64,000 nucleotides of DNA from Spirochaetia bacterium (GTDB lineage: Bacteria > Spirochaetota > Spirochaetia > CADAEX01). Of this stretch, positions 46,022-64,000 are shown piece after piece. Made by a program: the position numbers and the translations under genes. Every line of letters begins with the position of its first letter. Within the stretch, counting starts at the first letter, position 1. The DNA lies in assembly GCA_963668545.1 (NCBI GenBank), contig OY764868.1, positions 3,234,015-3,298,014 of the forward strand. The letters are read 5' to 3'. The notes under the pieces were generated by a model. That model was not told the origin of the DNA. It saw only the letters and a program-made list of their open reading frames with translations, and did no database searches.

Positions 46022-46078
46022 ATTAAGTCAAACTGATGCTGAAAAACATGCTATGATTATGTTATCAGGGGGATATAC

Positions 46079-47604: not shown

Positions 47605-47682
47605 TCAATGCCCATTTTTTTTACATTTTTTGAACTCGCCCGTCCATGGGCTCGTAAGAGGAAATAATTAAGGTAAATATAA

Positions 47683-49404: not shown

Positions 49405-49410
49405 TACTGT

Positions 49411-49438: not shown

Positions 49439-49471
49439 AATCTTTACTACACCAAAAAAAATGGGCACTAA

Positions 49472-49616
49472 ACATAACAGCGAATATGCGGTTACGCTTC
49501 GCTTCACCCAAATTGCTTCTTTGATAAAAGCTGAAAAAAGTATGTTATACTTTTCCCAGCTTTTATCAAGCCCACAAGGGGCCGAAGCAACTTCGCATAT
49601 TCGCGAGACGTTATCG
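49472..49616 (+). repeat. attC site of cassette 1
   Basis: ATAAC-agcgaatatgcg ... cgcatattcgcgag-acGTTATCG inverted arms; GTT at 49610-49612. Confidence 0.6.
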
Positions 49617-50044
49617 TAAATGGCTCTGACATACAACTTCATTCATTATTTACTAAAATCTGTCTCAGCCTTTTTTCAGGGTTTTATATCTCTTTCACAG
49701 GTTTCAACTGCACTGGTTCATTCTTGTTTTTAGAACTTCTTGCTTTGCTTTATCATGACTCTTATTGGTTTAAGTTTTTATATTTTTGCAGTTTCACTTT
49801 TCTTCAGTTCTGATATTGATAAGCACTAAGGGCTGAGTCAGATTTTGTCCTGACCTACACTCTTTCGTTTCCTTCACGCCACATCCGAAAACAGCGTATA
49901 TCCGGCTCCGGCTTGTGGGATGTATTTTCAGGGTAAAACGTCCTTCGCCAAAAATGCCAGGACTTTTTGTGTTGCAGAGTAAATGCAGCAGGTGTATCAT
50001 TAATCAAAATAAAGCGGCTGGCATCTTCGGATATACGCGTGCCG
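49611..50044 (+). repeat. ORF-less repeated cassette, copy a (434 nt, includes its own ~165-nt attC 49885-50050)
   Basis: Runs from the TT after the previous GTT core to its own GTT core. Divergent copy (about 90% identical to copies b-f). Confidence 0.6.
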
Positions 50045-50478
50045 TTTTCGGAAATGGCTCTGACATACAACTTCATTCATTATTCACGAAAATCTGTCTC
50101 AGCCTTTTTTCATGGTTTTGTGTCTCTTTCACAGGTTTCAACTGCATTTTTTCAGTTCTGCTTTTACAACTTCTTGCTTTGATTTTTCATGACTCTTATT
50201 GGTTTAAGTTTCTATATTTTGCAGTTTTCACACTTTTTAAGTTTTGTTATCTATAAGCACAAAGGGCTGAGTCAGATTTTGTCCTGACCTACACTCGTTC
50301 GTTTCCTTCACGCCACATCCGAAAACAGCGTATATCCGGCTCCGGCTTGCGGGGTGTATTTCCAGGGTAAAGCGTCCTTCGCCAAAAATGCCAGGACTTT
50401 TTGTGTTGCAGAGTAAATGCAGCAGGTGTATCATTATTCAAAATAGAGCGGCTGGCATCTTCGGATATACGCGTGCCG
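50045..50478 (+). repeat. ORF-less repeated cassette, copy b
   Basis: Same unit; attC arms gaAAAC-agcgtatatccg ... cggatatacgcgtgcc-GTTTTcg. Confidence 0.6.
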
Positions 50479-50913
50479 TTTTCGGAAATGGCGCTGACAT
50501 ACAACTTCATTCATTATTCACGAAAATCTGTCTCAGCCTTTTTTCCTTGGTTTTGTGTCTCTTTCATCGGTTTCAACTGCACTTTTTCAGTTCTGCTTTA
50601 AGAACTTAATTCTTTGATTTTTCATGACTCTTATTGGTATAAGTTTTTATATTTTTGCAGTTTCACTTCTCTTCAGTTCCGATATTGATAAGCACAAAGG
50701 GCTGAGTCAGATTTTGTCCTGACCTACTCTCTTTCGTTTTCTTCACGCCACTTCCGAAAACAGCGTATATCCGGCTCCGGCTTGCGGGGTGTATTTCCAA
50801 GGTAAAGCGTCCTTCGCCAAAAATGCCAGGACTTTTTGTGTTGCAGAGTAAATGCAGCAGGTGTATCATTAATCAAAATAAAGCGGCTGACATCTTCGGA
50901 TATACGCGTGCCG
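50479..50913 (+). repeat. ORF-less repeated cassette, copy c (identical to copy f)
   Basis: The 435-nt unit is identical base-for-base to 59612-60046. Identity starts and stops at the GTT cores. Confidence 0.65.
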
Positions 50914-50937
50914 TTATTCGTAATTTTCAGGCAAGAT

Positions 50938-50967
50938 ATTGCCCGGACCTCCCGGACGACACGGGCA
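50938..50967 (+). promoter_or_regulatory. conserved GC-rich hairpin module at 5' end of cassette (variant GCCCGGacctcccggacgacaCGGGC)
   Basis: About 25 nt downstream of the GTT core. Related modules at 53804, 56800, 58078, 60077 and 63524. Confidence 0.45.
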
Positions 50968-51004
50968 AAAGATTTAAAAAATATTTATTTTGCAGGAGAA
51001 AAAA

Positions 51005-51787
51005 ATGTTTTATGAGGAAATAAATAAAAGAACATGGAATGCAGCTAAACAATATTTAATAAATTTGTGTAAAGAAAGTTCGCATTGGATTTTTAGAGGT
51101 CAGTCAAATCCGGATTGGGAAGTAACTTCAACAATAGAAAGAGAATTAAGATATAGTGACCAAGAAAATTCTTCGATAGAAAATAAATTAATATCCGAAT
51201 TCAAAAGGGCTGCTCCCAATTATTTAAATCAAAACCAGATTCCTGCAAAACTGGTTGAATGGATGGCCTTAATGCAACATTACGGAGCTCCAACTCGTTT
51301 AGTTGATTTTACTAAATCTCCATATATTGCAACATTCTTTGCTTTTGAAAATATCTTTGAAAATTACAAATATGTTACAGTATGGGCAGTAGAAAGCTAC
51401 AAATTGAAGCAATTAGCTAATGAAGTGTATATAGATGATGATGTTCCCCAATTAATGAAAAATAATAAATATTTGGTATATCCTATTGAACCTTTTATAA
51501 TGAATGAAAGATTCGAAAAACAACAAGGGACATTTTTAATTACAGGAAACATTAATCAATCACTAGCTACAAATTTTATCGAAATGGGCTTATTAGAAGA
51601 TATGGGAATTATTAAAAAAATTAATATTCCAAAAATAGAAAAAAATAGTGTTATTCAAGACTTAAATTTAATGAATATCAATCCTGTAACTCTTTTTCCT
51701 GGTTTAGATGGATATTCGCGATACATAAAAAAAATGACAGATGCAATTTATAAAAAAGATTTTACTTATTTTAAAAGAGGAAATTAA
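51005..51787 (+). CDS. cassette: FRG-domain protein
   Basis: HWIFRGQSNPDWEV motif (FRG). ATG at 51005 with a GGAG RBS (the ORF track's TTG at 50990 is inside the conserved hairpin module). Confidence 0.65.
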   Translation: MFYEEINKRTWNAAKQYLINLCKESSHWIFRGQSNPDWEVTSTIERELRYSDQENSSIENKLISEFKRAAPNYLNQNQIPAKLVEWMALMQHYGAPTRLVDFTKSPYIATFFAFENIFENYKYVTVWAVESYKLKQLANEVYIDDDVPQLMKNNKYLVYPIEPFIMNERFEKQQGTFLITGNINQSLATNFIEMGLLEDMGIIKKINIPKIEKNSVIQDLNLMNINPVTLFPGLDGYSRYIKKMTDAIYKKDFTYFKRGN

Positions 51788-51859
51788 AATATTGCGACAA
51801 GTTATAAACAATTCAGAACTGGCTCCGCCGGACGGTCTGAAGAAGAGCCTGAAAACTAC

Positions 51860-52028
51860 GCATAACAGAGAATACCCGGTTCAGGCATAAGTAGTAAAAG
51901 TATGGGGCTTAACTGCCGTTCACCCAAAATGTCGGGACTTTTGTTGTTGCGTGTGAAATCTGGTGGGTATATGATTAATGAAATATCTGGAGCATCCGAC
52001 ATCTTCGGGTATTCTCAGAACGTTATAA
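51860..52028 (+). repeat. attC site (long family 1) of FRG cassette
   Basis: cATAAC-agagaatacccg ... cgggtattctcag-aacGTTATAAG. Preceded by an imperfect CAGAAC...GGTCTG hairpin at 51817-51839. Confidence 0.6.
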
Positions 52029-52125
52029 GAAATTGCGCTAATTAAATCTAATATAGATATTATATTTACAATAATTACATATAAATATATTTGATATATA
52101 ATGGTTTAATAATAAAGGATGATAT

Positions 52126-52680
52126 ATGAAAAAAATTATAATAAGTTTGATATTTATAACAGTAGCTTTTTGTGCTTTTCCTCAAGAAGCGAATATGAGA
52201 TTTCAATCTCAAATAGCTAGATTATTTGCACTCTATATTCCAAGTGCCGATTACAGTGTTGATTGGAACGCTAATAATACTGGAGAAGTTCTCAATATAA
52301 AATTTCCTGAAGTGAAATCATCAACTTATAATAGAAATATAATACCTAATTTAACAATTCAAATTGAAAAGAAATACAAATCCTTTGATACAAAGAGTGA
52401 ATTGATAAGTTTGTTGAATGACATGGAAAAAAGTCATTTCAAAGCAATATCAACAGGTCAAAAAGTCGATGGAGTCAATTTACAATACTCTATTGAAACT
52501 TTTGTAGCCTGTCAAAGCTATAAAGATCTTAAGATAAACAATATGAACCATACAATTCTTATCATGCTTGGACAATATGAAGACATGGCTGCCAGAGTAA
52601 TATTTGATGCTACTGATGATATATTTGAAAACACTCTTGAAACTGCAAAAACCATAATAAATAGTATTATTCTTGATTAA
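52126..52680 (+). CDS. cassette: secreted hypothetical protein (signal peptide)
   Basis: MKKIIISLIFITVAFCAF signal peptide. AT-rich cassette with its own AT-rich 5' region. Confidence 0.55.
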   Translation: MKKIIISLIFITVAFCAFPQEANMRFQSQIARLFALYIPSADYSVDWNANNTGEVLNIKFPEVKSSTYNRNIIPNLTIQIEKKYKSFDTKSELISLLNDMEKSHFKAISTGQKVDGVNLQYSIETFVACQSYKDLKINNMNHTILIMLGQYEDMAARVIFDATDDIFENTLETAKTIINSIILD

Positions 52681-52745
52681 AGAATATATCAAAGTAAAAC
52701 TATGAGAAGTTTAAATAATGTTGTTAGTGAAGGTAGGCGCAACTA

Positions 52746-52910
52746 CTTATAACAAGAAATATATGATAAAAACTGAATTAGAATAAATATAAGCAAACAG
52801 TTTTTATCAAAATTGCCAGAATATTTTCTGTTTCAGGATAATTTCAGAAGGTGTATGATTATTTCATATGAAGCACTCTGGCAACTTCATATATTTCTGA
52901 AACGTTTTCG
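52746..52910 (+). repeat. attC site (family 2)
   Basis: cTTATAAC-aagaaatatatg ... tgccag...ctggca ... catatatttct-gaaacGTTTTCG. Confidence 0.6.
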
Positions 52911-53339
52911 GAAATGGCTCTGACTCACAACTTCATTCATTATTCACAAAAATCTGTCTCAGCCTTTTTTCCATGGTTTTGTGTCTCATTTCTCGGTTTC
53001 AACTGCACTTTTTCAGTTCTGCTTTTACAACTTCTTGCTTAGATTTTTCATGACTCTTATTGGTATAAGTTTTTATATTTTTGCAGTTTCACTTCTCACC
53101 AGTTTTGATATTGATAAGCACTAAGGGCTGAGTCAGATTTTGTCCTGACTTACACTCTTTCGTTTTCTTCACGCCACATCCGAAAACAGCGTATATCCGG
53201 CTCCGGCTTGTGGGATGTATTTTCAGGGTAAAACGTCCTTCGCCAAAAATGCCAGGACTTTTTGTGTTGCAGAGTAAATGCAGCAGGTGTATCATTAATC
53301 AAAATAAAGCGGCTGGCATCTTCGGATATACGCGTGCCG
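52905..53339 (+). repeat. ORF-less repeated cassette, copy d
   Basis: Same 434/435-nt unit as copies a-c. Confidence 0.6.
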
Positions 53340-53773
53340 TTTTCGGAAATGGCTCTGACATACAACTTCATTCATTATTCACGAAAATCTGTCTCAGCCT
53401 TTTTTCAAGGTTTTGTGTCTAATCCTTGGGTTTCAACTGCACTGGTTCAGTTCTGCTCTTATAACATTTTGCTTTGATTTTTCATGACGCTTATGGATAT
53501 AAGTTTTTATATTTTTGCAGTTTCACTTTTCTTCAGTTCTGATATCGATAAGCACAAAGGGCTGAGTCAGATTTTGTCCTGACCTACACTCTTTCGTTTC
53601 CTTCACGCCACATCCGAAAACAGCGTATATCCGGCTCCGGCTTGTGGGATGTATTTTCAGGGTAAAACGTCCTTCGCCAAAAATGCCAGGACTTTTTGTG
53701 TTGCAGAGTAAATACAGCAGGTGTATCATTAATCAAAATAAAGCGGCTGGCATCTTCGGATATACGCGTGCCG
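53340..53773 (+). repeat. ORF-less repeated cassette, copy e
   Basis: Same unit. Confidence 0.6.
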
Positions 53774-54072
53774 TTATAAGCAATGTTTCCGCTAAGAGGA
53801 GAACGCCCATACCTCCGCCGACGGGCGAAGATTTAAAATTTATGATAAATTCAAAATAAAATGAAAGTATCTATGTATTGAATGATACGAAAGAATATGT
53901 TTATCAGAAAGAACTAAAATGAAATCATAGATGGTAAAACTTGACTTTTTCGTGATTAATAGTGATAGTTTTGTGATATTTCTGATTTTATAATATTAAT
54001 CTATTGAACCAATAATATTGAATATATTCCTTGACAGAGATTTTTACTGTATCTATCATTATCTTAACAACT

Positions 54073-55020
54073 ATGGAATATAGAGACTATTATAAAATCC
54101 TTGGCCTATCCAAGGATGCAACAAAAGATGATATAAAAAAGGCATACCGCAAACTTGCGCGTAAGTATCATCCAGATATAAACCTCCATGATAAAAAAGC
54201 TACTACTATGTTTGCAGATATCAATGAAGCAAACGAAGTGTTAAGCAGCGACGAAAAACGCAGGAAATATGATGCTCTGGGTTCAGACTGGCAGCAGTAT
54301 CAAAGTACCGGCTCCCAGAGGGCCTCACAACCACAGGGATTCGATTGGACACAATACGGTAAAGGAGCAGGCACTCAATCGTATACAGTTACAGAGGACG
54401 ACTTGAACAATATGTTTGGAGAAGGCGGTTTTTCGGATTTTTTCCAAAGCTTTTTTTCGTCCAGCCAGGAAAGACCGGGCAGTTCGGCTAAAAATTACGC
54501 AAGAAAAGGGCAGGATTATCAGGCTGAATTATATCTCGAAATTGAAGAAGCCTATAAAAAAACTGTTAAGACACTCTCTATAAACAGACAAAATATCAAG
54601 ATCACCCTTGAACCTGGCGTCAGGGATAGCCAGGTCATTAGACTGAAGGGTAAGGGCGGCCTAGGAATTAATGGCGGAGCTAATGGTGATTTATTTATTA
54701 CCCTGAAAATAAAACCCCATCCTATCTATAAAAGGGAGGGAGATGATCTGATTATGGAACTTGGTGTGAGTGTTTACAAAGCCATGCTTGGCGGCGAACA
54801 AATTATTAAATTATTATCAGATTCAATAAAAGTGAAAATAGCTCCCGAGACCCAAAGAGGGACAACACTACGCATCAAAGGAAAAGGATTTCCTTTGTAC
54901 AGGATAAAAGATGAATTTGGAGATTTATATATAAAGCTGGTTCTGGATGTACCCAAAAAGCTGACTGTAAAAGAGAAGGAATTAATAATGGAACTGGCCA
55001 AAATTAGGGGAGAAATATAA
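54073..55020 (+). CDS. cbpA: cassette: curved-DNA-binding DnaJ-like co-chaperone CbpA (J domain + DnaJ C-terminal domains, no Zn finger)
   Basis: MEYRDYYKILGL...HPD J-domain at the N-terminus, Gly/Phe-rich linker and two DnaJ_C beta domains. ATG at 54073 (the ORF track's TTG at 54031 would add 14 aa). Confidence 0.8.
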   Translation: MEYRDYYKILGLSKDATKDDIKKAYRKLARKYHPDINLHDKKATTMFADINEANEVLSSDEKRRKYDALGSDWQQYQSTGSQRASQPQGFDWTQYGKGAGTQSYTVTEDDLNNMFGEGGFSDFFQSFFSSSQERPGSSAKNYARKGQDYQAELYLEIEEAYKKTVKTLSINRQNIKITLEPGVRDSQVIRLKGKGGLGINGGANGDLFITLKIKPHPIYKREGDDLIMELGVSVYKAMLGGEQIIKLLSDSIKVKIAPETQRGTTLRIKGKGFPLYRIKDEFGDLYIKLVLDVPKKLTVKEKELIMELAKIRGEI

Positions 55021-55022
55021 AC

Positions 55023-55379
55023 ATGACAAGTCAAATATATATCCCTATCCAGGACGTTTCCGATTTTTGTCACATTAATATTACTATACTAAGAGATTTT
55101 GCCGAATACGAACTCATCAATATTCAAGAGTATAAAAATACCGAATGTGTGAAGGCTGATGATCTTGAACATATCAAGCGGATTATAGATTTATACAAGA
55201 GTCTTGGAGTGAATAAGGAAGGCATAGAGGTAATCCTGAAAATGCGCGACCAAATCCTGGAATTACAGGACGAAATTACTATACTTAAACATAAACTCGA
55301 GCACCGTAGAAACGACGTCAAATTTCGCTTTATAGAATTACCCAAGCAAAAGGGTTTATTGATTGATTATGATGAATAA
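55023..55379 (+). CDS. cbpM: cassette: chaperone modulatory protein CbpM (MerR-like)
   Basis: 118 aa, begins 3 nt after the cbpA stop. MerR-like fold; this is the canonical cbpA-cbpM pairing. Confidence 0.65.
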   Translation: MTSQIYIPIQDVSDFCHINITILRDFAEYELINIQEYKNTECVKADDLEHIKRIIDLYKSLGVNKEGIEVILKMRDQILELQDEITILKHKLEHRRNDVKFRFIELPKQKGLLIDYDE

Positions 55380-55692
55380 TCATTTTCAATAAGGATTATA
55401 AATTTATCACAACAATAACTGCCTTATTTAAAAACTAAGTGATATTGGAGTTTGTCAAAGAATTAATGTTTCTTAGGGAACAAATTGGTATTTAAAGTTT
55501 CAGATTTTTAGATTACAACCATTGCTCAAACCACAACTATGCTTTCCTGTTTTTAGTTTTCTCAGAAGCTCCAGATTAATCGTGGTATAGATCGAGGTAT
55601 AGTCAAAAACATCATAAGAAATAATCAAGTCTGATGATGTAATATAAAACAATGAGCAAATTTGTATAACATACAGTATGGAAGAGAAGGGA

Positions 55693-55833
55693 CCAGACCT
55701 TGACTCCTCCGAGCGGTCTGGTCGAAGAGGCGGAAACACTGCTTATAACAGCGGCTATATGCTTCGCCCTTTCGGGCTCGGCCTACGGCACATTTGGCTG
55801 CGCCAAACGTCATATAACCGCAAAACGTTAGCC
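55693..55833 (+). repeat. CCAGACC hairpin + short attC (family 3) ending GTTAGCC
   Basis: CCAGACCttgactcctccgagcGGTCTGG, then cTTATAAC-agcggctatatg ... catataaccgc-aaaacGTTAGCC (canonical GTTRRRY). Confidence 0.6.
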
Positions 55834-55913
55834 ATAATGCTCGGCTTGCCTTTTTGACTCGCCATCCATAGCTCGATTTGTAAGTAATATTAAAAGTAGG
55901 GAGATATAGTTCA

Positions 55914-56558
55914 ATGAACCTTTATAAGCACAAAAAAATCTTTTTATCAATTTTTCTATCTGCAATATTTTGTTTTAATTCATTATCGTTAGTAGCTGAT
56001 GATTATTCACCTGAAATCCAAAAATATATGGATGATTTGTTAAAGTGGAGAAAGGAGGTTGCATTACCACCACTACCGAAATTAATAACTTTACCATCAG
56101 GAATTACTATTCCAGAATTCACATTGAAGACAGAGAAATACCCTGAAGTTTTTTGGGATGGAAATATGATGATTGGCGCAACTCCTTTTATTGTGCGAGT
56201 TTTAACTGAAAATGAGACAGAAATACTCATAAAAATTGCTTCAGATGCACTTACACAACACTATAACTCAAGATCAAAGAAATCCGATATGGGTTTTGAA
56301 AAAGCACATATAAATGATTTCTATGCTTTATCAATAGCTGAAGTATATAGACATTCTGGGTTATTCGGACCAACCATTGATGGAAGCACAACATTTGTAT
56401 TAATTATGAAAAAAGATGTAAATCCATCAAACCTTTTTCCAAATGAAAAGCTATATAAAAACTACATACCTTGGGCGCCTAGCGGCATACATTTCTTAGT
56501 AATTGAGCGATTTTCTGATGGTTCTTTTAAAGTCAATAACGAAGGAGCCGCCGGATAA
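55914..56558 (+). CDS. cassette: secreted hypothetical protein
   Basis: Signal peptide MNLYKHKKIFLSIFLSAIFCFNSLSLVA. Confidence 0.55.
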   Translation: MNLYKHKKIFLSIFLSAIFCFNSLSLVADDYSPEIQKYMDDLLKWRKEVALPPLPKLITLPSGITIPEFTLKTEKYPEVFWDGNMMIGATPFIVRVLTENETEILIKIASDALTQHYNSRSKKSDMGFEKAHINDFYALSIAEVYRHSGLFGPTIDGSTTFVLIMKKDVNPSNLFPNEKLYKNYIPWAPSGIHFLVIERFSDGSFKVNNEGAAG

Positions 56559-56611
56559 AAAAGTACATCCATATACTTTGTATATTTAGATAGAGGATAG
56601 CCGAGCACAAC

Positions 56612-56775
56612 GGCTAACAAGAAATATATTATTCAGGCTGGAGAAGTAAAAAAGAAAGTATACAGCCTTCATCCAAATTGCCAGAATGTTTTCTGTTGCA
56701 GAGTAATTTCAGCAGGTGTATGATTATTTCATATGAAGAAGTCTGGCAACTTCATATATTTCTGAAACGTTATCA
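56612..56775 (+). repeat. attC site (family 2)
   Basis: gCTAAC-aagaaatatatt ... catatatttct-gaaacGTTATCAG. Confidence 0.6.
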
Positions 56776-56799
56776 GAAATGTTCCCGCAAGAGGAAGAT

Positions 56800-56824
56800 C
56801 GCCCGGACCTCCGGCCGACGGGCG
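56800..56824 (+). promoter_or_regulatory. conserved GC hairpin module CGCCCGGacctccggccgaCGGGCG at cassette 5' end
   Basis: Identical or near-identical copies at 58078, 60077 and 63524; variants at 50938 and 53804. Confidence 0.45.
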
Positions 56825-56861
56825 AAGATAATTCAACAATAATGAAAAAGGAGATAATAAT

Positions 56862-57821
56862 TTGAAAAATGTATATTTAATAATACTATTATTGACAGTT
56901 AATACATTAGTTTCAGCAAATGACACATGGATTTATAACGCATATAGTGGTTCCCCAATAAAAATTAATGAGGATCATAATAAAATTGAATTAATCAATG
57001 AAACAATCACAGTTAAATTAGAAAAAGACTACTACTATATTGATGTTTTATTCAACTTTTACAATCATGGAAATGATGTAAATACAGTTATAGGTTTTCC
57101 TAAATTTTATTGGACCGGATTTCCATATGAAAAAGCAGATACTGAATTTATAGATTTTGAAACATTTGTTAATGGTAAAAAAGTTGATTCTAAAATTCAA
57201 AAAATACTAAAATATGATAAACTATCTGAATTTTTAACAAAAGAGGTATACATTCCTTCTAAGTCAAAAACAACAACTGAAATAAGATATAAGAGTAAAT
57301 ATGCAACCTATGGAGGAATGGGTCATAAATCTGTACCATATTTATATGGTACAGGTAAAACTTGGGCGAAAGAATCTTGGGATATAGATGTAAAAATAAT
57401 AAATAATAGCAACAAATGGATTAAGCGATTCCAATGTGATCAAAAAATCTATAAATTTTCAAATAAAAACAATGTTATTGATTTAATCTTTAAAGATGTG
57501 AATCCAAACGAATTTACAGAGTATTTTGAAATTGTATTAAAGAATAATTTTGATGAAATGTTTGATTTTTACTGGGATATTTATGGGGAAAAAAATATTA
57601 AACAAGATGAACTAACTTATTTAAATGATAATCAATTAAGACTTTATAGAAATGCATTCTTTGCAAAAGATGGTTATATTTTCAAATCAAAAGATTTGCA
57701 AAATTATTTTAAAAAATTTGATTGGTATAAAGAAAACAATGACTTTAATCCAGATGTTTTTTCAAATATAGAAAAAAATAATATTAAATTAATTTCAATA
57801 GAAGAAAAAAAACGTAAATAG
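56862..57821 (+). CDS. cassette: secreted YARHG-domain protein
   Basis: Signal peptide; C-terminal LRLYRNAFFAKDGYIFKSKDLQNYFKKFDWY matches the YARHG-domain pattern. Confidence 0.6.
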   Translation: MKNVYLIILLLTVNTLVSANDTWIYNAYSGSPIKINEDHNKIELINETITVKLEKDYYYIDVLFNFYNHGNDVNTVIGFPKFYWTGFPYEKADTEFIDFETFVNGKKVDSKIQKILKYDKLSEFLTKEVYIPSKSKTTTEIRYKSKYATYGGMGHKSVPYLYGTGKTWAKESWDIDVKIINNSNKWIKRFQCDQKIYKFSNKNNVIDLIFKDVNPNEFTEYFEIVLKNNFDEMFDFYWDIYGEKNIKQDELTYLNDNQLRLYRNAFFAKDGYIFKSKDLQNYFKKFDWYKENNDFNPDVFSNIEKNNIKLISIEEKKRK

Positions 57822-57837
57822 AATCTTTAAAAGAAAT

Positions 57838-58054
57838 CCAGACCTGGCTCCGCCGTACGGTCTGGAGAAGAGCGGGAACACATCTGATAACAGAGAATAC
57901 CACGGTTCAGGCATAAGTTGTAGAAGCTTTGGAATAAATGCCTTTCACCCAAAATGTCGGGTCTTTTTATTGTTGCGTGTGAAATCGGCCAGATATATGA
58001 TTTATTAAATATCTGGAGTACCCGACATCTTCGGGTATTCTCAGAACGTTATCG
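57838..58054 (+). repeat. CCAGACC hairpin + long attC (family 1)
   Basis: CCAGACCtggctccgccgtacGGTCTGG ... tGATAAC-agagaatacc ... cgggtattctcag-aacGTTATCG. Confidence 0.6.
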
Positions 58055-58165
58055 TAAATGCCCCCCAAGAGAAGATCGCCCGGACCTCCGGCCGACGGGC
58101 GATAAGATTATAATGATTATGAATTGAATTAGACTACAAAAAAGTAAAGAGGAGGATCTACAGAT

Positions 58166-59341
58166 ATGTCAGAGCAGTTCTCAAGAAGAAAAAAGGAAGA
58201 AAACCCCGTTATAGCGATTTGCTATGATTTTGATAAAACCCTTTCTCCTGACGATATGCAAGCTCAAGGATTTATACAGTCAGTTGGATATGATATAAAA
58301 ACTTTTTGGGAGAGATCAAATAAGCTTGCTACTGATAATGAAATGGATCAAAATCTAGCATATATGTATACAATGCTTCAAACATCAGTAGGGATGCAGT
58401 TAGTAACAAAAAAAGTGTTAAGGGAATATGGTGAAAAAGTTACTCTTTTCCCTGGAGTAGAAGATTGGTTCTCAAGAATAAGAGATTATGGCATTAAACG
58501 CGATGTTATAATTGAACATTATATAATTTCATCTGGTTTAAAAGAAATGATTGAAGGAACATCAGTTGCAAAAGAATTTGAAAAAATATATGCAAGTTCT
58601 TTTTATTTTGATGAATATGATATTGCAAAGTGGCCAGCTCAAGCAATAAATTATACAAATAAGACTCAGTTTTTATTCAGAATAGAAAAAGGTGTTTTGG
58701 ATATTAATGACCAAAGTGTAAATGATAGCTTTTCATCAGATAAAATTAGAGTGCCATTCAGAAATATAATTTATATTGGTGATAGTGACACTGATATCCC
58801 GTGTATGAAATTAGTTAATTCTTATGGGGGGCATTCAATAGGCGTATATAATGTTGAAACAAAGGATAAAACTAAAGTTTATAAAATGATGAGGGAAAAT
58901 AGAATTAAATATTTCTCTCCAGCTGATTATTCTGAAGATTCAGAATTGGACAAATTAATAAAAGCAATAATTGTAAGAACTGTTTCCAATGAGCAACTTG
59001 AAGTTTTTCATTCAAAAAATATTTTAGAACAAATTGATAATGACAAATCATATGATAAAAAGACTCAAGAACAAAATAAAGAAAGATTGAATGGTATTTT
59101 AGCACTTGAAAGCAGTCTTAGTTTTACGAATACTCATACCGTTATTGATAAGATTAAACATATTCAAGATTGGACAGATAAAGAAATAGAAATGTTATTA
59201 GAAATAGGAAATAAAAATAGTCAAGTATGGTATATATTAGGTGATTTAGACGTAAAGAATTTTTATAAAAGACTTATAGAATCACCAAATTGTAATAAAG
59301 AGACGGATAATGCAAAAGAAATTATAGAACAGATAGATTAA
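58166..59341 (+). CDS. cassette: HAD-like hydrolase with C-terminal extension
   Basis: CYDFDKTLSP (DxDxT motif I) and IYIGDSDTD (motif IV); 391 aa. Confidence 0.55.
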   Translation: MSEQFSRRKKEENPVIAICYDFDKTLSPDDMQAQGFIQSVGYDIKTFWERSNKLATDNEMDQNLAYMYTMLQTSVGMQLVTKKVLREYGEKVTLFPGVEDWFSRIRDYGIKRDVIIEHYIISSGLKEMIEGTSVAKEFEKIYASSFYFDEYDIAKWPAQAINYTNKTQFLFRIEKGVLDINDQSVNDSFSSDKIRVPFRNIIYIGDSDTDIPCMKLVNSYGGHSIGVYNVETKDKTKVYKMMRENRIKYFSPADYSEDSELDKLIKAIIVRTVSNEQLEVFHSKNILEQIDNDKSYDKKTQEQNKERLNGILALESSLSFTNTHTVIDKIKHIQDWTDKEIEMLLEIGNKNSQVWYILGDLDVKNFYKRLIESPNCNKETDNAKEIIEQID

Positions 59342-59399
59342 ACTAAGATTATCTAAAAATAATGTTATCTTGAAATATAATCGAGAGATAGATAAAAAG

Positions 59400-59617
59400 C
59401 CAGACCTTGACTCCGTCGTACGGCTTGGACAAGAGAGGGGGGCACATCCGATAACAGAGAATACCCGGTTCAGGCATAAGCAGTAAAAGTTTGGGGCTTA
59501 ACTGCCTTTCACCCAAAATGTCGGGCCTTTTTATGTTACAGGTGGAAACTGGTGGTTGTATGATTATTTTAATACGTGGAAGATCCGACATCTTCGGGTA
59601 TTCTCAGAACGTTTTCG
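59400..59617 (+). repeat. hairpin + long attC (family 1) ending GTTTTCG
   Basis: CCAGACCttgactccgtcgtacGGCTTGG ... cGATAAC-agagaatacccg ... cgggtattctcag-aacGTTTTCGG. Confidence 0.6.
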
Positions 59618-60046
59618 GAAATGGCGCTGACATACAACTTCATTCATTATTCACGAAAATCTGTCTCAGCCTTTTTTCCTTGGTTTTGTGTCTCTTTCAT
59701 CGGTTTCAACTGCACTTTTTCAGTTCTGCTTTAAGAACTTAATTCTTTGATTTTTCATGACTCTTATTGGTATAAGTTTTTATATTTTTGCAGTTTCACT
59801 TCTCTTCAGTTCCGATATTGATAAGCACAAAGGGCTGAGTCAGATTTTGTCCTGACCTACTCTCTTTCGTTTTCTTCACGCCACTTCCGAAAACAGCGTA
59901 TATCCGGCTCCGGCTTGCGGGGTGTATTTCCAAGGTAAAGCGTCCTTCGCCAAAAATGCCAGGACTTTTTGTGTTGCAGAGTAAATGCAGCAGGTGTATC
60001 ATTAATCAAAATAAAGCGGCTGACATCTTCGGATATACGCGTGCCG
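59612..60046 (+). repeat. ORF-less repeated cassette, copy f (identical to copy c)
   Basis: 435/435 identity to 50479-50913; the flanks differ on both sides. Confidence 0.65.
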
Positions 60047-60143
60047 TTATCAGCAATGTTCCCGCAAGAGAAAGATCGCCCGGACCTCCGGCCGACGGGC
60101 GAGGATTGTGAAAATAATTAGTTAAATTTCAAGGAAATTATTT

Positions 60144-60917
60144 ATGCGAGAAAATATAGAATATTGGATAGATCTTTTAGAAAGTGCCTATATTTTAACT
60201 CATGATATTGACAAAATAATACGGCCTATAAGAAATAACGATATAATAAAAAAAGTTTTGAATGCATATCTTTTTAAAGTGAATAGGACACTTGCAGGGA
60301 TCATTTTATTATATAAAAATAACTTTAATGAAGAAGGCCAAATATTAGTACGTACAATGTTTGAGCTACTATTGGATTTTAGTTTTTTTACAAATATTTT
60401 AAAAACAGAACCTGAAATAGCTGGTCGTCGTATTATAGATAGTCTCATAATTGAAAAAGCAAAGCAACTAAGGGCTTCTAATTATGACGGCGTCCCAGAA
60501 AACATAAAATTAGATATTGAAAAATGGGAGTCTGAAGTCAAGTCAAGATATTCAATTGATGATATCCGGAAATTACGTAGATATGGATTTTCAATGGTAT
60601 CAGTAGAAGAAAAAGCAAAATTAACTGGTCATGAAAGCATATATAATATTATGTATAGAAACTTTTCTCGTAATTCACATAACACTGATTTTATGGAAAG
60701 TTTTCTTCAAATACAAGCATATGAGGCAGATGGCTATGAAGAGCTTCAAGTTTCAAGAGATTCTATTGCGATGGAAACTACATTTATAACAATATACAAT
60801 ACCATTCAATCTTTAAATACGGTTTTTAAACTTTCTTTCAATGATCGAATCGAACAACTTAAAAGAAAGTTTGATATGCTAAAAAAGAATAATGATGAAA
60901 CAATTTCAGGAAATTAG
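60144..60917 (+). CDS. cassette gene 1 of 2: hypothetical protein (257 aa, no recognisable domain)
   Basis: Long ORF with a GGAA RBS region; first gene of the only long two-gene cassette. Confidence 0.5.
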   Translation: MRENIEYWIDLLESAYILTHDIDKIIRPIRNNDIIKKVLNAYLFKVNRTLAGIILLYKNNFNEEGQILVRTMFELLLDFSFFTNILKTEPEIAGRRIIDSLIIEKAKQLRASNYDGVPENIKLDIEKWESEVKSRYSIDDIRKLRRYGFSMVSVEEKAKLTGHESIYNIMYRNFSRNSHNTDFMESFLQIQAYEADGYEELQVSRDSIAMETTFITIYNTIQSLNTVFKLSFNDRIEQLKRKFDMLKKNNDETISGN

Positions 60918-60958
60918 ATCATTCAATATTTTAGGAATTATCAAGGAGTATATAACTC

Positions 60959-61819
60959 ATGCTTGTAATTAAAAATTATATTTTTTCCTATTTTAATAGT
61001 ATTTCATATGAAATATGGATTGGAGCTATAATTGGAGCAATTATTTCTGCTTTGTTTATGTTATTTTTTTCATTTTTAAAAGGAATAATATTTAAAATTA
61101 AAGAACAACTACCAGTTCGAAAAGTTGTTGGTGATTTTGCAAATGACGAACAAATATGTAGTATCTTTTTAAAAAACCTTTACTCACATAATTATGAATA
61201 TCTATCAAATGAACCCAATTTTTTCCCACCTTATACGAAAAATACTCAAAGAGAATGGCAGAATATTCCATTTGTAATTGCTAATTCAGATTTCCAAGCT
61301 GCTACGGATTTTACAAACATCCTTGGACAAATAGGAAAAAGAAAAAATATTATTTTTCGATCAATTGAAAATGAGTGGGATTTGTGGTCAGAAAACATAT
61401 TATCTATTGGAGGCAATTATAAAACTGAAAAAATATTTGAATTGTCAAATAATAAATACGTGGAAATCACAGAAAATAATTCTTTTAAATTTAATGACCA
61501 CAGTGAATTATTTTTTTCTAAAGATAATAATGATTTCGGACTGATATATAAAGCTACAAATCCAGCAACACAGAAAAAATGTTTTGTTATAATGGGTATT
61601 GGTGTAGAAGGAACAAAAGCTGCAAGCTATTATTTTAGAACAAACTTATCTCAAATTGGTAAAATGTTTGGTAAAAATGACTTTGCATTGTTAGTTAAGA
61701 TAAAAATTGGACAAGGTAGAGAAAATTCTAAATTAGCCTGGTATCTTCCCAATATTTCTTTAAGTTCAAAACTATGTCATCCATTGATTTGGAAAAGAAT
61801 ATTTTCAATAATTAAATAA
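60959..61819 (+). CDS. cassette gene 2 of 2: membrane-anchored hypothetical protein (N-terminal TM helix + ~240-aa cytoplasmic domain)
   Basis: IWIGAIIGAIISALFMLFFSFL TM. GGAG RBS 8 nt upstream. No attC between it and gene 1. Confidence 0.5.
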   Translation: MLVIKNYIFSYFNSISYEIWIGAIIGAIISALFMLFFSFLKGIIFKIKEQLPVRKVVGDFANDEQICSIFLKNLYSHNYEYLSNEPNFFPPYTKNTQREWQNIPFVIANSDFQAATDFTNILGQIGKRKNIIFRSIENEWDLWSENILSIGGNYKTEKIFELSNNKYVEITENNSFKFNDHSELFFSKDNNDFGLIYKATNPATQKKCFVIMGIGVEGTKAASYYFRTNLSQIGKMFGKNDFALLVKIKIGQGRENSKLAWYLPNISLSSKLCHPLIWKRIFSIIK

Positions 61820-61943
61820 GCAATTTAATCAATCACGGGATAGACAGTATAAAATTATTATTAAAAATAAAAAATTAAGTAGCTTTCAAAAAAATATTAT
61901 TAACATATTTTCCGTACAATTTTTTTATGTAGACAGAAAAGAT

Positions 61944-62155
61944 CCAGACCTTGACTCCGCCGTGCGGTCTGGTCGAAGAGTGGGAACACTTCAGATAACA
62001 AGAAATATATGATTCAAGCTGGAAAAGAGTAAATGACAGAAAACAGCTTTCATCCAAATTGCCAGAACGTTTTCTATTTCTGTATAGTTGCAGCAGGTGT
62101 AAGATTATTTCATATAGAGCGGTCTGGCAACTACATATATTTCTGAAACGTTATT
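61944..62155 (+). repeat. CCAGACC hairpin + attC (family 2)
   Basis: CCAGACCttgactccgccgtgcGGTCTGG ... caGATAAC-aagaaatatatg ... ttgccag/ctggcaa ... catatatttct-gaaacGTTATTTG. Confidence 0.6.
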
Positions 62156-62171
62156 TGCAAGGCTAAAATTG

Positions 62172-63508
62172 TCCAACCAGGACATGGGTAACGATTTAAC
62201 TTCAGGACATAGGTAACACTTTTACAGGAATCTTTCCGAAACCTTTAATAAAAAAGGGAGGAAAGAAATGCCCTGGAAGGAGACTTATGTTATGGATCAA
62301 AGAAAAGAATTCGTACTGGAAGCAATGGATCCTCTCTGCAATTTTACTAAGCTTTGTAGTAAATACGGCATTTCAACTAAGACAGGATATAAGTGGAAAA
62401 GCCGTTTTATACAAGAAGGTTTTGCAGGCCTTTTTGATCAGTCGAAAAGACCTGATAATTCACCAACTCAAATAGATGAAGAGACGATACTTGAGATAAT
62501 AAAATTAAAAATAAAGAAAAAACACTGGGGGCCAAAGAAAATAAGAGAGATTTACAGGCAAAAACATCCTGATGAAATAATACCATGTCTTACCAGTGTC
62601 GAAAGAATATTAAGAAAAGCAGGTCTTATTAAAAAACGAAAGCGGAATCGGACAGGCAGTGGAATTAGACTTCAAACAAATGCTGTAGCTGAAAAGCCTA
62701 ATGATGTATGGACAGTAGATTTTAAAGGTTGGTGGTATACCCAAGATAAAGAAAAAGTGAATCCGTTAACTGTAAGAGATGATTTTTCAAAATACATTTT
62801 ATGCATAAAAGCTCTTGATAAAGGGGATACAGCTTCTGTAAAGGCTGAATTTGAGGTTCTTTTTAAAAGATTTGGACTTCCTAAAGTCATTCGATCAGAT
62901 AATGGACCTCCCTTTGCATCAAGAATGAGTCTTCTAGGCTTAACAAAGCTTTCAGTCTGGTGGATGGCTTTAGGTATTCAATTAGATAGAATTGAACCAG
63001 GTAAACCTCAGCAAAATGGAAGCCATGAACGAATGCACCTTGATATGAAAAATGAACTTGAAAGCTGTATCGAAGGAAATATTCTGCTGCACCAGAAAGA
63101 GTTTGACAGGTGGCGTAAAGAGTTCAATAACGAGAGGCCTCATGAAGCTTTAGGAATGAAAACTCCTGCTATGGTTTATACTGCATCAGAAAATAAATAT
63201 GACGGAATCATTGAGGACTTGGAATATCCCGGAACATTCAGGACACGGTTGGTAAATAACAGGGGTTATATAAGCATTAAAAGACGAATGTTCTTTATTG
63301 GTAATCCTTTCATGGGTTATTATGTAGGTATAAGACCGCAAAAGGACTGACAGCAGAATGTCTGGTTCGGTGATTATTTTTTAGGATCTTTGGATATGGA
63401 TACAGGATTATTACAGCCTGAGTCTATTGTGAAATTTAATAAGGGCAATTTAAGAAAACCGTTACCCATGTCTTGAAGGGGGACTGTTACCTATGTCCTG
63501 AAGTTGGA
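62172..63508 (+). mobile_element. IS481-family-like insertion sequence inserted about 20 nt downstream of an attC core, inside the conserved 5' module of the next cassette
   Basis: Ends TGTCCAACCAGGACATGGGTAAC (left) and GTTACCTATGTCCTGAAGTTGGAC (right, reverse-complementary). Each end carries two tandem copies of a ~17-nt CAGGACATRGGTAAC motif. Confidence 0.65.
62268..63350 (+). CDS. IS481-family transposase (HTH + rve DDE integrase core)
   Basis: N-terminal HTH; DVWTVDFKGW ... D ... E rve catalytic core; 360 aa single ORF. Confidence 0.75.
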   Translation: MPWKETYVMDQRKEFVLEAMDPLCNFTKLCSKYGISTKTGYKWKSRFIQEGFAGLFDQSKRPDNSPTQIDEETILEIIKLKIKKKHWGPKKIREIYRQKHPDEIIPCLTSVERILRKAGLIKKRKRNRTGSGIRLQTNAVAEKPNDVWTVDFKGWWYTQDKEKVNPLTVRDDFSKYILCIKALDKGDTASVKAEFEVLFKRFGLPKVIRSDNGPPFASRMSLLGLTKLSVWWMALGIQLDRIEPGKPQQNGSHERMHLDMKNELESCIEGNILLHQKEFDRWRKEFNNERPHEALGMKTPAMVYTASENKYDGIIEDLEYPGTFRTRLVNNRGYISIKRRMFFIGNPFMGYYVGIRPQKD

Positions 63509-63523
63509 CCCGCCAAGAGGAAG

Positions 63524-63548
63524 ACGCCCGGACCTCCGGCCTACGGGC
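63524..63548 (+). promoter_or_regulatory. conserved GC hairpin module (CGCCCGGacctccggcctaCGGGCG)
   Basis: Same module as at 56800, 58078 and 60077, here immediately after the IS right end. Confidence 0.45.
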
Positions 63549-63609
63549 GAAGAAAAAATGTAATTTAAAACAGAATTCGCTTTTTAGAGATGAATAATAA
63601 GGAAGATAA

Positions 63610-64000
63610 ATGATAATAAAAATAGCTTATTTCTCCGGAACTGGATGTACACAATTTGTCGCTGAATCATTCAAGAATGAAATTGAAGCTAGAAATCACT
63701 CTGCTCAAATGATTAGAATTGGTAAGGACATTTCAAATAGTAAGAAGGATTACGATTTACTAATTATATGTTATGCAGTCCATGCATGTAATGCGCCAAA
63801 GCCAGTTCTTGATTGGGTTAATAATAACGAAGAATCAGATAATGTTCCAACAGCCATTATTTCTGTTTCGGGAGGAGGAGAAGTAACCCCAAATTTAGCA
63901 TGTCGTTTATTATTGAAGAAGAAATTAACTAAGAAGAATTATTCAGTATTTTATGAAAAGATGATAGTAATGCCGTCAAATTGGATAGTTCCAACAAAAC
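63610..64000 (+). CDS. cassette: flavodoxin-like protein (3'-partial, runs off window)
   Basis: MIIKIAYFSGTGCTQ flavodoxin signature (S/T-x-T-G-x-T) at the N-terminus. Confidence 0.6.
   Translation, partial: MIIKIAYFSGTGCTQFVAESFKNEIEARNHSAQMIRIGKDISNSKKDYDLLIICYAVHACNAPKPVLDWVNNNEESDNVPTAIISVSGGGEVTPNLACRLLLKKKLTKKNYSVFYEKMIVMPSNWIVPTK

Follow-up and report, generated by a model that had tools for sequence, protein, structure and literature searches.

The cassette array and its recombinase

The window, i.e. the whole 64,000-nt stretch of the Spirochaetia contig OY764868.1 that was analysed, carries a gene for an IntI-related tyrosine recombinase and, divergent from it, an array of gene cassettes (Table 1). 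The best NCBIfam match of the recombinase is the integron integrase model TIGR02249, whose cutoff of 265 bits is not reached (205 bits). The protein aligns end to end with XerA, whereas its alignment with the Vibrio integrase VchIntIA (2a3v) falls into two pieces, with 21 residues facing 64 of the Vibrio chain (residues 182–245). Judged by this score and the short segment, an IntI-type integrase with an I2 domain was not found at the locus. Homologues of the recombinase adjoin arrays at four further loci (L078, L009, L033 and L058).

The array itself was resolved into 15 mapped junctions with attC sites, which are imperfect palindromes that run from RYYYAAC to GTTRRRY and contain L boxes. A simple R/L-box finder recovered 13 of these 15, with one false positive in 64 kb. 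As in classical attC sites (59-base elements), an R'' box ending in AAC, an R' box GTTRRRY, L boxes and a variable loop can be recognized. The crossover at GTT is likewise classical, so that a circular cassette completes its own R' box with its first bases, as are the adjacent, divergent recombinase gene and the occurrence of cassettes common to several genomes as discrete units.

Table 1. Positions of the recombinase gene and of the cassette features within the window (hp2, 5' hairpin; hp1, 3' hairpin).
Feature	Positions	Strand	Remarks
IntI-related tyrosine recombinase, 266 aa	46478..47278	-	divergent from array; without IntI-specific I2 region
First large cassette, type-B hp2 GCCC-GTCCAT-GGGC	47635..47654	+	partner hp1 at 49411-49438
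FRG cassette, right arm	50913..50932	+	first 20 nt from G of GTT; 18/24 match to reverse complement of 51843-51866
FRG cassette, hp2, diverged TGCCCG..CGGGCA	50940..50967	+	
FRG cassette, hp1 (3' partner)	51813..51840	+	followed by AGAAGAG and left arm 51847-51866
cbpAM cassette, right arm	53773..53792	+	19/24 match to own 3' arm; identity with L009 starts here, beside intI
cbpAM cassette, hp2, diverged	53804..53827	+	
cbpAM cassette, hp1	55693..55721	+	followed by TCGAAGAG and left arm 55730-55749
Cassette 55827-56769, type-B-like hp2, weak stem	55858..55875	+	partner hp1 at 56560-56579
YARHG cassette, right arm	56769..56788	+	complementary to own 3' arm
YARHG cassette, hp2, canonical	56800..56824	+	
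YARHG cassette, hp1	57837..57866	+	followed by GAAGAG and left arm 57872-57891
HAD cassette, right arm	58048..58067	+	complementary to own 3' arm
HAD cassette, hp2, canonical	58077..58101	+	
HAD cassette, hp1	59400..59428	+	followed by ACAAGAGA and left arm 59436-59455
Two-gene cassette, right arm	60046..60065	+	complementary to own 3' arm
Two-gene cassette, hp2, canonical	60077..60101	+	
Two-gene cassette, hp1	61943..61972	+	followed by TCGAAGAG and left arm 61980-61999
Flavodoxin cassette start, GTT and arm remnant, IS-cut	62150..62170	+	
IS481-like element	62171..63509	+	at right-arm end, 15 nt upstream of intact hp2
Flavodoxin cassette, hp2, one mismatch	63525..63549	+	cassette 3' end outside window

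A hairpin shared by six cassettes

In the usual description, integron cassettes consist of a gene and an attC site and have nothing else in common. In this array, six cassettes share a GC-rich hairpin near their 5' ends, CGCCCGG-ACCTCCGGCCGA-CGGGCG with 12 nt between the two stem strands (hp2). Four copies are near-identical, with CGCCCGGACCTCCGGCCGACGGGCG being exact in the YARHG, HAD and two-gene cassettes and altered by one mismatch in the flavodoxin cassette. The two diverged copies belong to the cbpAM cassette (CGCCCATACCTCCGCCGACGGGCG) and to the FRG cassette, in which the two stem changes, C>T and G>A, compensate each other. Shuffled sequences gave an expectation of 0.00 copies (100 shuffles).

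A preliminary description of this DNA had reported six such hairpins about 25–30 nt past the crossover, and all six were recovered. In five of them, hp2 starts 27–31 nt after the G of GTTRRRY, while the sixth is parted from its GTT by the IS481-like element. Likewise, the one junction said to lack the module in spite of its attC family was found at 52022, where the upstream attC belongs to the same family as that at 58048. The insertion of the IS481-like element inside the module has to be revised, as the element lies 20–21 nt after the G of GTT and leaves the hairpin intact. A 95.6% identical copy of this element at locus L098 is found at the equal distance from another GTT.

Matched arms and hairpins at both cassette ends

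hp2 has a counterpart: two hairpins and two complementary arms form a matched set, half of it at either end of the cassette. On the top strand, a cassette starts with the crossover G|TT and a 20-nt right arm. A linker rich in purines (AAGAGRA..) leads to hp2, which is followed by one or more genes, a second hairpin (hp1) and another purine-rich linker (..AAGAAG). A 20-nt left arm with ..AAC (R'') at its end then adjoins the cassette's own attC site. Each cassette's initial 20 nt are the reverse complement of an equally long segment ending at its own R'' box. hp1 is related to hp2, is of the same type within a given cassette and closes every complete module-bearing cassette about 25 nt before the attC site. 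Since first regular-expression calls of the hp1 types missed variants, these were re-examined by eye and with a general hairpin search. Neither hp1 nor the left arm at the cassette's 3' end featured in the preliminary description.

The complementarity is specific to the individual cassette. The two ends of one cassette match at 11.5 of 13 positions, compared with 7.5 of 13 for ends facing each other across an attC site in the array and 6.2 of 13 for random sequence. Among 180 modules defined by the hairpin pattern, 101 have an arm partner of at least 16/20, invariably with hp1 just upstream of it (101/101); shuffled arms yielded 0/180 even at a threshold of 15 or more.

The position of the hairpins is set by the crossover and not by the open reading frame (ORF). 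The spacing between GTT and hp2 is 29–31 nt (sd 0.6) and that between hp1 and R'' has a median of 25 nt (interquartile range 24–25), whereas hp2 precedes the ORF start by anything from 5 to 250 nt (sd 47) and hp1 lies between -58 and +311 nt from the stop codon. In related genomes, 184 of 188 pattern-defined hp2 copies occur 29–32 nt after a GTT. Moreover, a cassette has one such pair whatever its number of genes: several genes are present in 54 of 104 type-A cassettes, with internal copies in none. A by-eye check for mutual complementarity of hp1 and hp2 found none, and a pseudoknot of the CCTCC loop with an AAGAGG linker was dropped, because the linkers do not conserve GAGG.

Ownership, mobility and distribution

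The assignment of the module to the downstream cassette, as originally proposed, is borne out by the own-end complementarity and by cross-genome identity that begins exactly at GTT. The alternative that it forms part of an extended attC site comes close to the present reading, insofar as the module would be an outer part of an enlarged recombination site in the circular cassette; this site would be built on the cassette's own attC and not on the upstream one, given that the 5' arm pairs with the 3' arm of the same cassette rather than with that of the neighbour. In addition, the type of hairpin does not depend on which attC family lies upstream and is distributed as a mosaic relative to these families.

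Two module-bearing cassettes recur, hairpins included, in other genomes at more than 99% identity with boundaries at GTT. The whole HAD cassette (58048-59613) is 99.5% identical to its counterpart in L038. The window from 53773 onwards matches L009 at 99.9%, starting at a GTT about 80 nt off the intI start. Such module-bearing cassettes travel as units, and the sequence comparisons indicate that the cassettes are discrete mobile elements recombining at G|TT, including at a putative attI beside the integrase gene. Some cassettes handled by integrases of the same family have arms without hairpins, and the latter are hence not obligatory for mobility.

The layout of arms and hairpins was found in at least about 190 cassettes from more than ten Spirochaetia genomes. 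In OY759746.1, where cassettes were defined by arm-pair detection because the R/L-box finder failed on the shorter L boxes, the array spans about 328 kb, and all 132 copies among the matches listed fall on one strand of 38 out of 41 consecutive tiles, many of them near-identical. As no copy was detected in positions 1–47300 of the window (about 47 kb) or in about 43 kb of non-array flanks, the module is restricted to arrays, and a generic dispersed repeat of the REP/BIME kind is not supported by the matches listed. The genome scan also matched GC-rich genomes of Actinobacteria, Chloroflexi and similar taxa; these matches lacked a cassette context and were rejected as chance, as were matches of a loose two-gap pattern to unrelated coding DNA on viral contigs. 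The type-A related arrays were located via the hairpin pattern itself, which biases their ascertainment; the loci located via the integrase exhibit arms and type-B hairpins only. The layout is kept across arrays whose integrases are just 34–45% identical.

Covariation, loops and strand preference

In the 20-bp arm helix, three to four Watson–Crick pair types occur at most positions, in a set that was chosen by arm complementarity and for which the own-end matches and the pattern-defined modules serve as independent checks. One mismatch, at arm position 11, is near-invariant (72/80); it is A.C if the top strand is read, but G.T, a wobble pair, if the bottom strand is. The arms fold better as bottom strand in 39 versus 7 (type A) and 22 versus 8 cases (type B). 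Both the mismatch and the folding preference agree with the strand that is used in integron recombination. For the hairpins alone, folding energies gave a small bottom-strand preference for type A, with sequences that are non-independent, and none for type B, and the mismatch-type test comprised five informative mismatches only.

hp1 covaries in both stems. Type-A hp2, on the other hand, is conserved by sequence rather than by covariation and is near-invariant even at unpaired positions, which fits recognition by a factor, either as DNA or as RNA. The hairpin loops keep a strand-specific TCC (GGA on the bottom strand). Cassettes other than type A have more than 30 different stems; in these cassettes, hairpins with a TCC loop are present at 20 of 63 5' ends and 27 of 63 3' ends, compared with 0.2–0.8% in shuffled sequences. 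A GGA loop on the coding strand was encountered in 0 of 80 hairpins. CsrA-type binding hairpins were ruled out on this basis, because the coding-strand loops read TCC and GGA is antisense only. GNA triloops are hyperstable; a bottom-strand C-GGA-G apex of this kind would suit type A and fails for the type-B loops AGGA and AGGAC.

The conserved loops could be read by a sequence-specific accessory or host protein, for which the hairpins would be loading sites on the folded single strand, one on each side of attC, with no need for structural stabilization. They would then resemble the accessory sites of other tyrosine-recombinase systems or the subterminal hairpins of IS200/IS605 and REP elements. 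Loop sequence and strand are conserved at freely varying stems, and the near-invariance of type-A hp2, the symmetric placement about 25–30 nt from R'' and R' and the identical type of hp1 and hp2 in a given cassette would be expected as well. A candidate protein was not found, however, and some mobile cassettes do without the hairpins. We regard such a loading function as quite unlikely in itself, although it overlaps the explanation preferred below instead of excluding it.

Arms and hairpins might also be functionless remnants of cassette formation or of an ancestral long palindromic element that were spread by duplication. This could account for the many near-identical copies in OY759746.1, for the mosaic of hairpin types and for ORF-less cassettes, which contain a single continuous long helix in place of the hairpins. 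Yet, the compensatory changes in arms and hp1 and the retention of one loop on more than 30 stems indicate selection for structure, and the layout persists among strongly diverged integrases. An origin as mere hitch-hiker is therefore considered very unlikely.

Readings at the level of gene expression

The preliminary description had interpreted the hairpin as a 5' expression module, i.e. a promoter, a translational element or a co-regulatory site. While its cassette ownership and the distinction from a generic repeat were supported, this interpretation was not: no promoter-like or terminator-like site overlaps the module, its spacing follows the crossover and not the start codon, and it occurs per cassette and not per gene. 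A mobile promoter or intrinsic terminator at the cassette 5' end is favored solely by the location upstream of genes and is extremely improbable. No sigma-70 promoter (-35/-10 with a spacing of 16–18 nt) overlaps any module copy, no hairpin with a T tract was found on type-A hp1 or hp2 on either strand, and the GC-rich module is devoid of AT-rich hexamers. Across the array, promoter-like sites are in weak excess (87 versus 70.8 in shuffles, sd 9.5) and terminator-like sites are rarer than in shuffles (4 versus 8.4).

A role in RNA processing, stability or insulation is less improbable. The type-A and type-B hairpins are confined to ORF-carrying cassettes and, wherever they occur, flank the coding part. 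ORF and hairpins share the same strand in 133 of 141 type-A and type-B cassettes, so that a link to expression is possible. The arms may pair across the gene in a putative polycistronic array transcript and the resulting stalk be cut by a double-strand RNase, with hp2 guarding the 5' end and hp1 the 3' end of the mRNA. Alternatively, the hairpins might shield the ribosome-binding site (RBS) from the attC structure, or their UCC/CCUCC loops might pair with RBSs. Folding as RNA predicts the same three-part structure as described below, and the type-A hp2 loop ACCTCC is identical to the anti-Shine–Dalgarno core of the 16S rRNA tail. However, the loop varies (TCC, CCT, TTC, TCT, TTT), which weakens a strict anti-Shine–Dalgarno reading. 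The conserved arm mismatch would be A.C in the sense RNA and is G.T on the opposite strand, and the spacing disregards start and stop codons. Furthermore, in the sole family with a reversed ORF, both hairpins stay in their orientation relative to attC. Taken together, a function at the RNA level appears rather unlikely.

Stalks that flank 16S rRNA and occur in T7 early mRNAs are formed by complementary sequences and cut by a double-strand RNase. With these RNase III stalks, the cassettes share complementary flanks and end hairpins, a likeness of mechanism only; they differ in that the arm mismatch disfavors the sense strand.

A putative composite recombination site

We prefer to regard the module as the right-hand hairpin of a cassette-borne bipartite structure that serves as an accessory of the recombination site in single-stranded DNA, an assignment to which we give about an even chance. 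By sequence logic, in an excised and circularized cassette the arms would lengthen the attC stem by about 13 bp past the R box and place hp1 and hp2 symmetrically at the base of the extended stem. The predicted fold of the circular junction comprises a hairpin, a linker, the long arm-extended attC hairpin, a second linker and a second hairpin, together roughly 270 nt. Alternatively, the arms may pair across the gene in the integrated cassette, which would bring the two flanking attC sites together; arm pairing could then be an address that unites the two attC sites around one cassette. In either case, the enlarged multi-helix site would function as single-stranded DNA when the IntI-related recombinase next to the array carries out recombination, for example by stabilizing or marking the folded attC of an individual cassette. 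Conceivably, the TCC loops (GGA on the bottom strand) serve as recognition or positioning elements.

In classical integrons, I2 reads extrahelical bases of the attC sites (PMC4792948). For a recombinase without this region, different site determinants are plausible. The Spirochaetia arrays could thus represent a distinct integron lineage, in which an I2-less integrase relies on a composite multi-helix site instead. Arm pairing, the G.T wobble and the two bottom-strand GGA-loop hairpins may provide folding, strand choice or partner choice, and the integrase may never have had I2 or may have lost it. This proposal is tentative and clearly less likely than not. If true, it would offer an alternative, possibly intermediate, answer to the question of "which came first, I2 or attC" (PMC4792948).

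Irrespective of its function, this cassette lineage bears about 100 extra conserved, structured nucleotides that are split over the two ends and make sense only as a circle. The arms are a simple means to pair both ends of a cassette and to define cassettes in very large arrays. Should the structure act in recombination, the cassette boundaries and attC models of annotation tools would be too narrow for such arrays, single-stranded DNA sites could exceed a single hairpin, an I2-less IntI-related enzyme might handle folded sites in another way, and an open evolutionary question would become directly testable.

Relation to known systems

Unlike in classical integrons, the end complementarity of these cassettes continues past the R box of 7 bp for about another 13 bp and includes a conserved mismatch, a purine-rich linker and a TCC-loop hairpin are present on each side, and the recombinase lacks I2. 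A search of the integron literature found no description of end arms or flanking hairpins. The closest proposal concerns the DUF1874 motif, a multistem structure in consecutive intergenic regions that Weinberg et al. (2017, PMC5737381) put forward as an unusual attC, which would make it a single-stranded DNA fold of greater complexity than one plain hairpin. Runs of the DUF1874 motif have no integrase at the likely 5' end (PMC5737381); the present array, in contrast, adjoins a recombinase gene, and the mobility of its cassettes is documented. No covariance model of Rfam 15, including DUF1874 and the Transposase-resistance/attC motif, matched positions 45000–64000 at E<=1.

IS200/IS605 and REP elements possess subterminal hairpins that have the same orientation at both ends and are read on one strand as folded single-stranded DNA. 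The resemblance is limited to the same-orientation hairpin at both ends of a mobile unit; an HUH transposase was not found with these arrays, whose units end at attC, beside a tyrosine recombinase.

Like the VCRs of sedentary chromosomal integrons in Vibrio, the modules are near-identical repeats between unrelated genes in very large arrays. In VCR-type systems, the repeat is attC itself. The module described here differs in lying outside the R boxes, inside the neighboring cassette and independent of the attC family. The cultured relative Spirochaeta isovalerica has a recombinase that is 63% identical to the one in the window.

Array layout and module copies in the window

Positions 46000-64000 of the window were inspected directly, and 15 cassette junctions were placed by their GTTRRRY cores. 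The array begins beside a minus-strand tyrosine-recombinase gene and continues on the plus strand up to the window end. The GC-rich hairpin module at the 5' end of cassettes (hp2), previously described from six places, was recovered at all of them as three exact, one single-mismatch and two diverged copies (see table), and no exact or one-mismatch copies are expected in shuffles. The junction correctly described as lacking the module is that at 52022, where the upstream attC is of the family that also precedes 58048.

The attC sites of the window (e.g. 57885-58054) possess a one-sided R/L spacer, with 1 nt after R'' vs 5 nt before R', and a perfect L-box stem of 9-12 bp with no obvious extrahelical bases, an anatomy unlike that of classical attC sites. 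Beside the recombinase gene lies an attI-like motif, CAGATAAATGTAG/TT, which is common to the related Marispirochaeta stretch L009 (cagataagagtaG/TT).

Features of the cassette array (window coordinates)
Feature	Position	Strand	Basis
Recombinase gene, 266 aa	46478-47278	-	
Region of attI-like motif	47366-47598		
Tiny ORF-less first cassette, ~220 bp	47378-47598		by eye only
hp2, exact CGCCCGGACCTCCGGCCGACGGGCG	56800, 58077, 60077	+	pattern search
hp2, one mismatch	63525	+	pattern search
hp2, diverged copy	53804-53827	+	
hp2, diverged copy, compensatory stem change TGCCCG..CGGGCA	50940-50967	+	
ORF-less cassette, 434-435 bp, six copies	49610-50913 (3), 52904-53773 (2), 59611-60046 (1)		
Promoter-like sequence in attC loop	52813-52842, 62059-62088	+	10/12 matches
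IS481-like element	62171-63509		

A second hairpin and complementary arms

When the 75 nt before each R'' were set beside the 75 nt after each R', a second hairpin (hp1) was found just before the own attC in all five complete module-bearing cassettes (CCAGACC-ttgaCTCCGCCGtgc-GGTCTGG, followed by the purine-rich linker GAAGAG), while this flank comparison revealed none in window cassettes without the module. Furthermore, every cassette opens with a right arm of ~20 nt (GTT and the next 17 nt) whose reverse complement recurs as the left arm, the ~20 nt that end at the cassette's own R'' with ..AAC. An end-by-end comparison matrix showed these arms to be cassette-specific, e.g. GTTATCGtaAaTGCCCCCC vs GTTATCGgaTgTGCCCCCC. 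The top-strand order is G/TT, right arm, AAGAGRA linker, hp2, gene(s), hp1, AAGAAG linker, left arm and attC. When the two ends of the YARHG cassette were joined, 3' to 5', as they would be in the excised circle, the predicted fold was hp1, an unpaired linker, a long arm-extended attC hairpin, another unpaired linker and hp2, with the bottom strand predicted to be slightly more stable.

The tiny first cassette, which would be the sixteenth, has arms of its own and a degenerate hp1-like sequence. The ends of the 434-435-bp ORF-less cassette form a further 16-bp helix beyond the arms (GGGCTGAGTCAGATTTT / AAAATCTGTCTCAGCC), so that a single very long hairpin would result on circularisation.

The layout was then examined in 188 modules defined by pattern, a start set independent of how cassettes were found. 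A GTT lies 29-32 nt upstream of the module in 184 of these, the four exceptions being the IS-interrupted window copy, a copy with ATT for GTT, one with a longer arm and an odd case in a Treponemataceae MAG. For 101 of 180 modules a downstream arm partner matching at 16 or more of 20 positions was detected (shuffled arms: none at 15 or more), in all 101 cases with hp1 immediately upstream of it. hp2 follows GTT by 29-31 nt (sd 0.6) and hp1 precedes R'' by a median of 25 nt (interquartile range 24-25), whereas hp2 precedes the first start codon by 5-250 nt (sd 47) and hp1 lies -58 to +311 nt from the stop codon. Hence, both hairpins are placed relative to the recombination site and not to the gene. 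Each cassette has one hairpin pair: 54 of 104 type-A cassettes, i.e. those whose hp2 belongs to the class containing the module, carry at least two genes, and internal copies occur in none.

At the outer arm positions, the two ends of one cassette match at 11.5/13, as opposed to 7.5/13 for the left arm of a cassette and the right arm of the next one across the attC (random 6.2/13), which argues that the arm helix belongs to a single cassette; 25% of the across-attC matches are high because neighbouring cassettes share an arm family. Conceivably, the arm helix forms in the excised circle. Alternatively, when the array DNA is single-stranded, the arms may pair over the intervening gene, so that the attC sites on either side would be drawn together.

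Cassette boundary and mobility

The stretch 58048-59613, exactly from GTT to the next GTT, is 99.5% identical to a stretch of a Spirochaetia MAG (L038) in which the neighbours differ. Similarly, 53773-54637 is 99.9% identical to the Marispirochaeta stretch L009, with the identity beginning at the G of GTT. There, ~80 nt separate this cassette from the start of a gene for an integrase that is 41% identical to that of the window, and the junction reads ...cagataagagtaG/TTATAAGC. As cross-genome identity starts at GTT, the module moves inside the cassette, with crossover at GTT. The module was thus rightly assigned to the downstream cassette, and a check for a boundary downstream of it placed the boundary at GTT, upstream of the module.

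The IS481-like element was previously thought to interrupt the module itself. It is instead inserted at the arm/linker boundary, 20-21 nt past the G of GTT, with its far end 15 nt upstream of the intact hairpin. A 95.6% identical copy in another related genome (L098, ~820-2162) occupies the same position relative to GTT beside a different attC, which suggests a target preference for the arm/linker boundary. A further integrase-anchored array (L123, 1-5700) harbours three identical IS110-family transposase genes in alternation with a 249-aa ORF.

Occurrence in other genomes

A single scan of the genome collection with a tightened module pattern returned at least 115 stretches. Among those listed, true matches belong to Spirochaetia MAGs and a few small contigs binned elsewhere; matches in GC-rich phyla have no cassette context at all and were dismissed as chance. 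Among the matches listed, the Spirochaetia chromosome OY759746.1 accounts for 38 of 41 consecutive 8-kb tiles (1,856,001-2,184,000), and the 304 kb examined contain 132 type-A hp2 copies, all on one strand. Its cassette array apparently spans ~328 kb of the 3.93-Mb chromosome. In one tile examined the layout recurs, and hp1 differs there by compensatory changes (CCAAGCC/GGCTTGG). A partial integrase-like ORF is located within this array (L037, 1761-2291).

The preliminary description had considered that the module might be a generic genomic repeat. A pattern search found no copies in the remaining 47 kb of the window, and those listed from OY759746.1 occupy consecutive array tiles; this confinement to arrays argues against a dispersed repeat. 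A tandem group of three or four hp2-like hairpins, among them CGTCCGGGCCTCCGGCCGACGGACG and CGCCCGGACCTCCGGCCGACGGGCG, occurs outside the normal cassette layout in the Treponemataceae MAG (L070, ~5200-5520, minus strand), in GC-rich non-coding DNA beside a degenerate attC-like site and with no Rfam match.

Structure conservation and hairpin variants

Watson-Crick pairs make up 92% of the 20-pair arm helix across 80 non-redundant type-A cassettes, and most positions are represented by three or four pair types; this set was chosen on arm complementarity, for which the window matrix and the arm-partner test on the 188 modules are the independent checks. One arm position is nearly always mismatched: in 72/80 a left-arm C faces a right-arm A, which gives A.C on the top strand and G.T when the bottom strand is read. 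Folding of the arms is favoured for the bottom strand in both type A (39 v 7) and the other TCC-loop class, type B (22 v 8).

The outer stem of hp1 has many compensatory variants, and its inner 3-bp stem occurs as GGC/GCC, GCC/GGC, AAC/GTT, GAC/GTC, ATC/GAT or CCC/GGG around a mostly TCC loop. Type-A hp2 is kept in sequence, with rare compensatory changes (TGCCCG/CGGGCA, GTGCCCG/CGGGCAC). Among cassettes detected by their arms only, type B has freely varying stems that close on CA-TCCW-TG or CC-GTCCT-GG at both ends, and in ORF-less cassettes the helix simply runs on past the linkers. TCC-loop hairpins are present at 20/63 5' ends and 27/63 3' ends of non-type-A cassettes (shuffles 0.2-0.8%), with more than 30 distinct stems; a GGA loop never occurs on the top strand among the hairpins of these 63 cassettes. 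The hairpin type is the same at both ends of a cassette and independent of its own and the upstream attC family.

Some type-B hp1 apices on the bottom strand (GUACAAGGAUGUAC; L110 ~4234 and others) match the CsrA SELEX consensus RUACARGGAUGU. This may be coincidence, the coding-strand loop being UCC.

Recombination site, RNA or expression

The proposed role of the module in expression gained no support: type-A hairpins bear no promoter-like or terminator-like sites on either strand, and the module is placed by the recombination site rather than the gene. Shuffled sequence contains more terminator-like sites than the array does. One attC family has, in its variable loop, a promoter-like sequence (TTGCCA-18-GATAAT / TATAGT) directed into the downstream cassette; similar sequence in other attC families is also seen, and it could be AT-rich noise.

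We give about even chances to the reading in which the module forms one half of a two-part extension, conserved in structure, of the recombination site that its own cassette carries. The evidence favours a recombination-linked role on account of the crossover-fixed register, the single pair per cassette, the bottom-strand arm wobble and the attC-relative orientation that the hairpins keep in the only reversed-ORF family (three copies). The case is not conclusive, as the hairpins have little or no strand preference of their own and A/B hairpins are restricted to ORF-carrying cassettes. The arms could instead be an RNA processing stalk and the hairpins could protect mRNA ends. This would fit the anatomy equally well, except that an RNA stalk would carry the conserved arm mismatch as A.C, and we consider it rather unlikely.

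Rfam gave no family matches at E<=1 in window 45000-64000, the DUF1874 motif included. This multistem element of consecutive intergenic regions, a suspected unusual attC (PMC5737381), is the closest published idea to the Spirochaetia structure. No description of the bipartite hairpin/arm structure was found in the literature searched.

The array recombinase

The recombinase is IntI-related, its best family match being the integron integrase, below the curated cutoff. It aligns with XerA end to end, and with the Vibrio integron integrase VchIntIA (2a3v) in two pieces, having 21 residues where the latter has 64 (chain 182-245), which is where the IntI-specific I2 helix lies. According to PMC4792948, I2 reads the extrahelical bases of attC, and the same paper raises the problem of how either of the two could have evolved in the absence of the other. 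Speculatively, the atypical site makes up for the absent I2 domain. The recombinase is a member of an extensive family, chiefly spirochaetal, of ~265-aa proteins, whose arrays would probably be called attC clusters without integrase by tools that demand the I2 signature. In the culturable Spirochaeta isovalerica, which encodes a recombinase 63% identical to that of the window, the contig breaks off 380 nt from intI.

At loci reached through related integrases (45-55% identity), type-A hairpins are absent, nearly every cassette has arms with the same AAT/ACT mismatch, and about half of the cassettes carry type-B hairpins. Hence, arms seem to be shared generally by the arrays associated with this integrase family, the module being one widespread hairpin variant.
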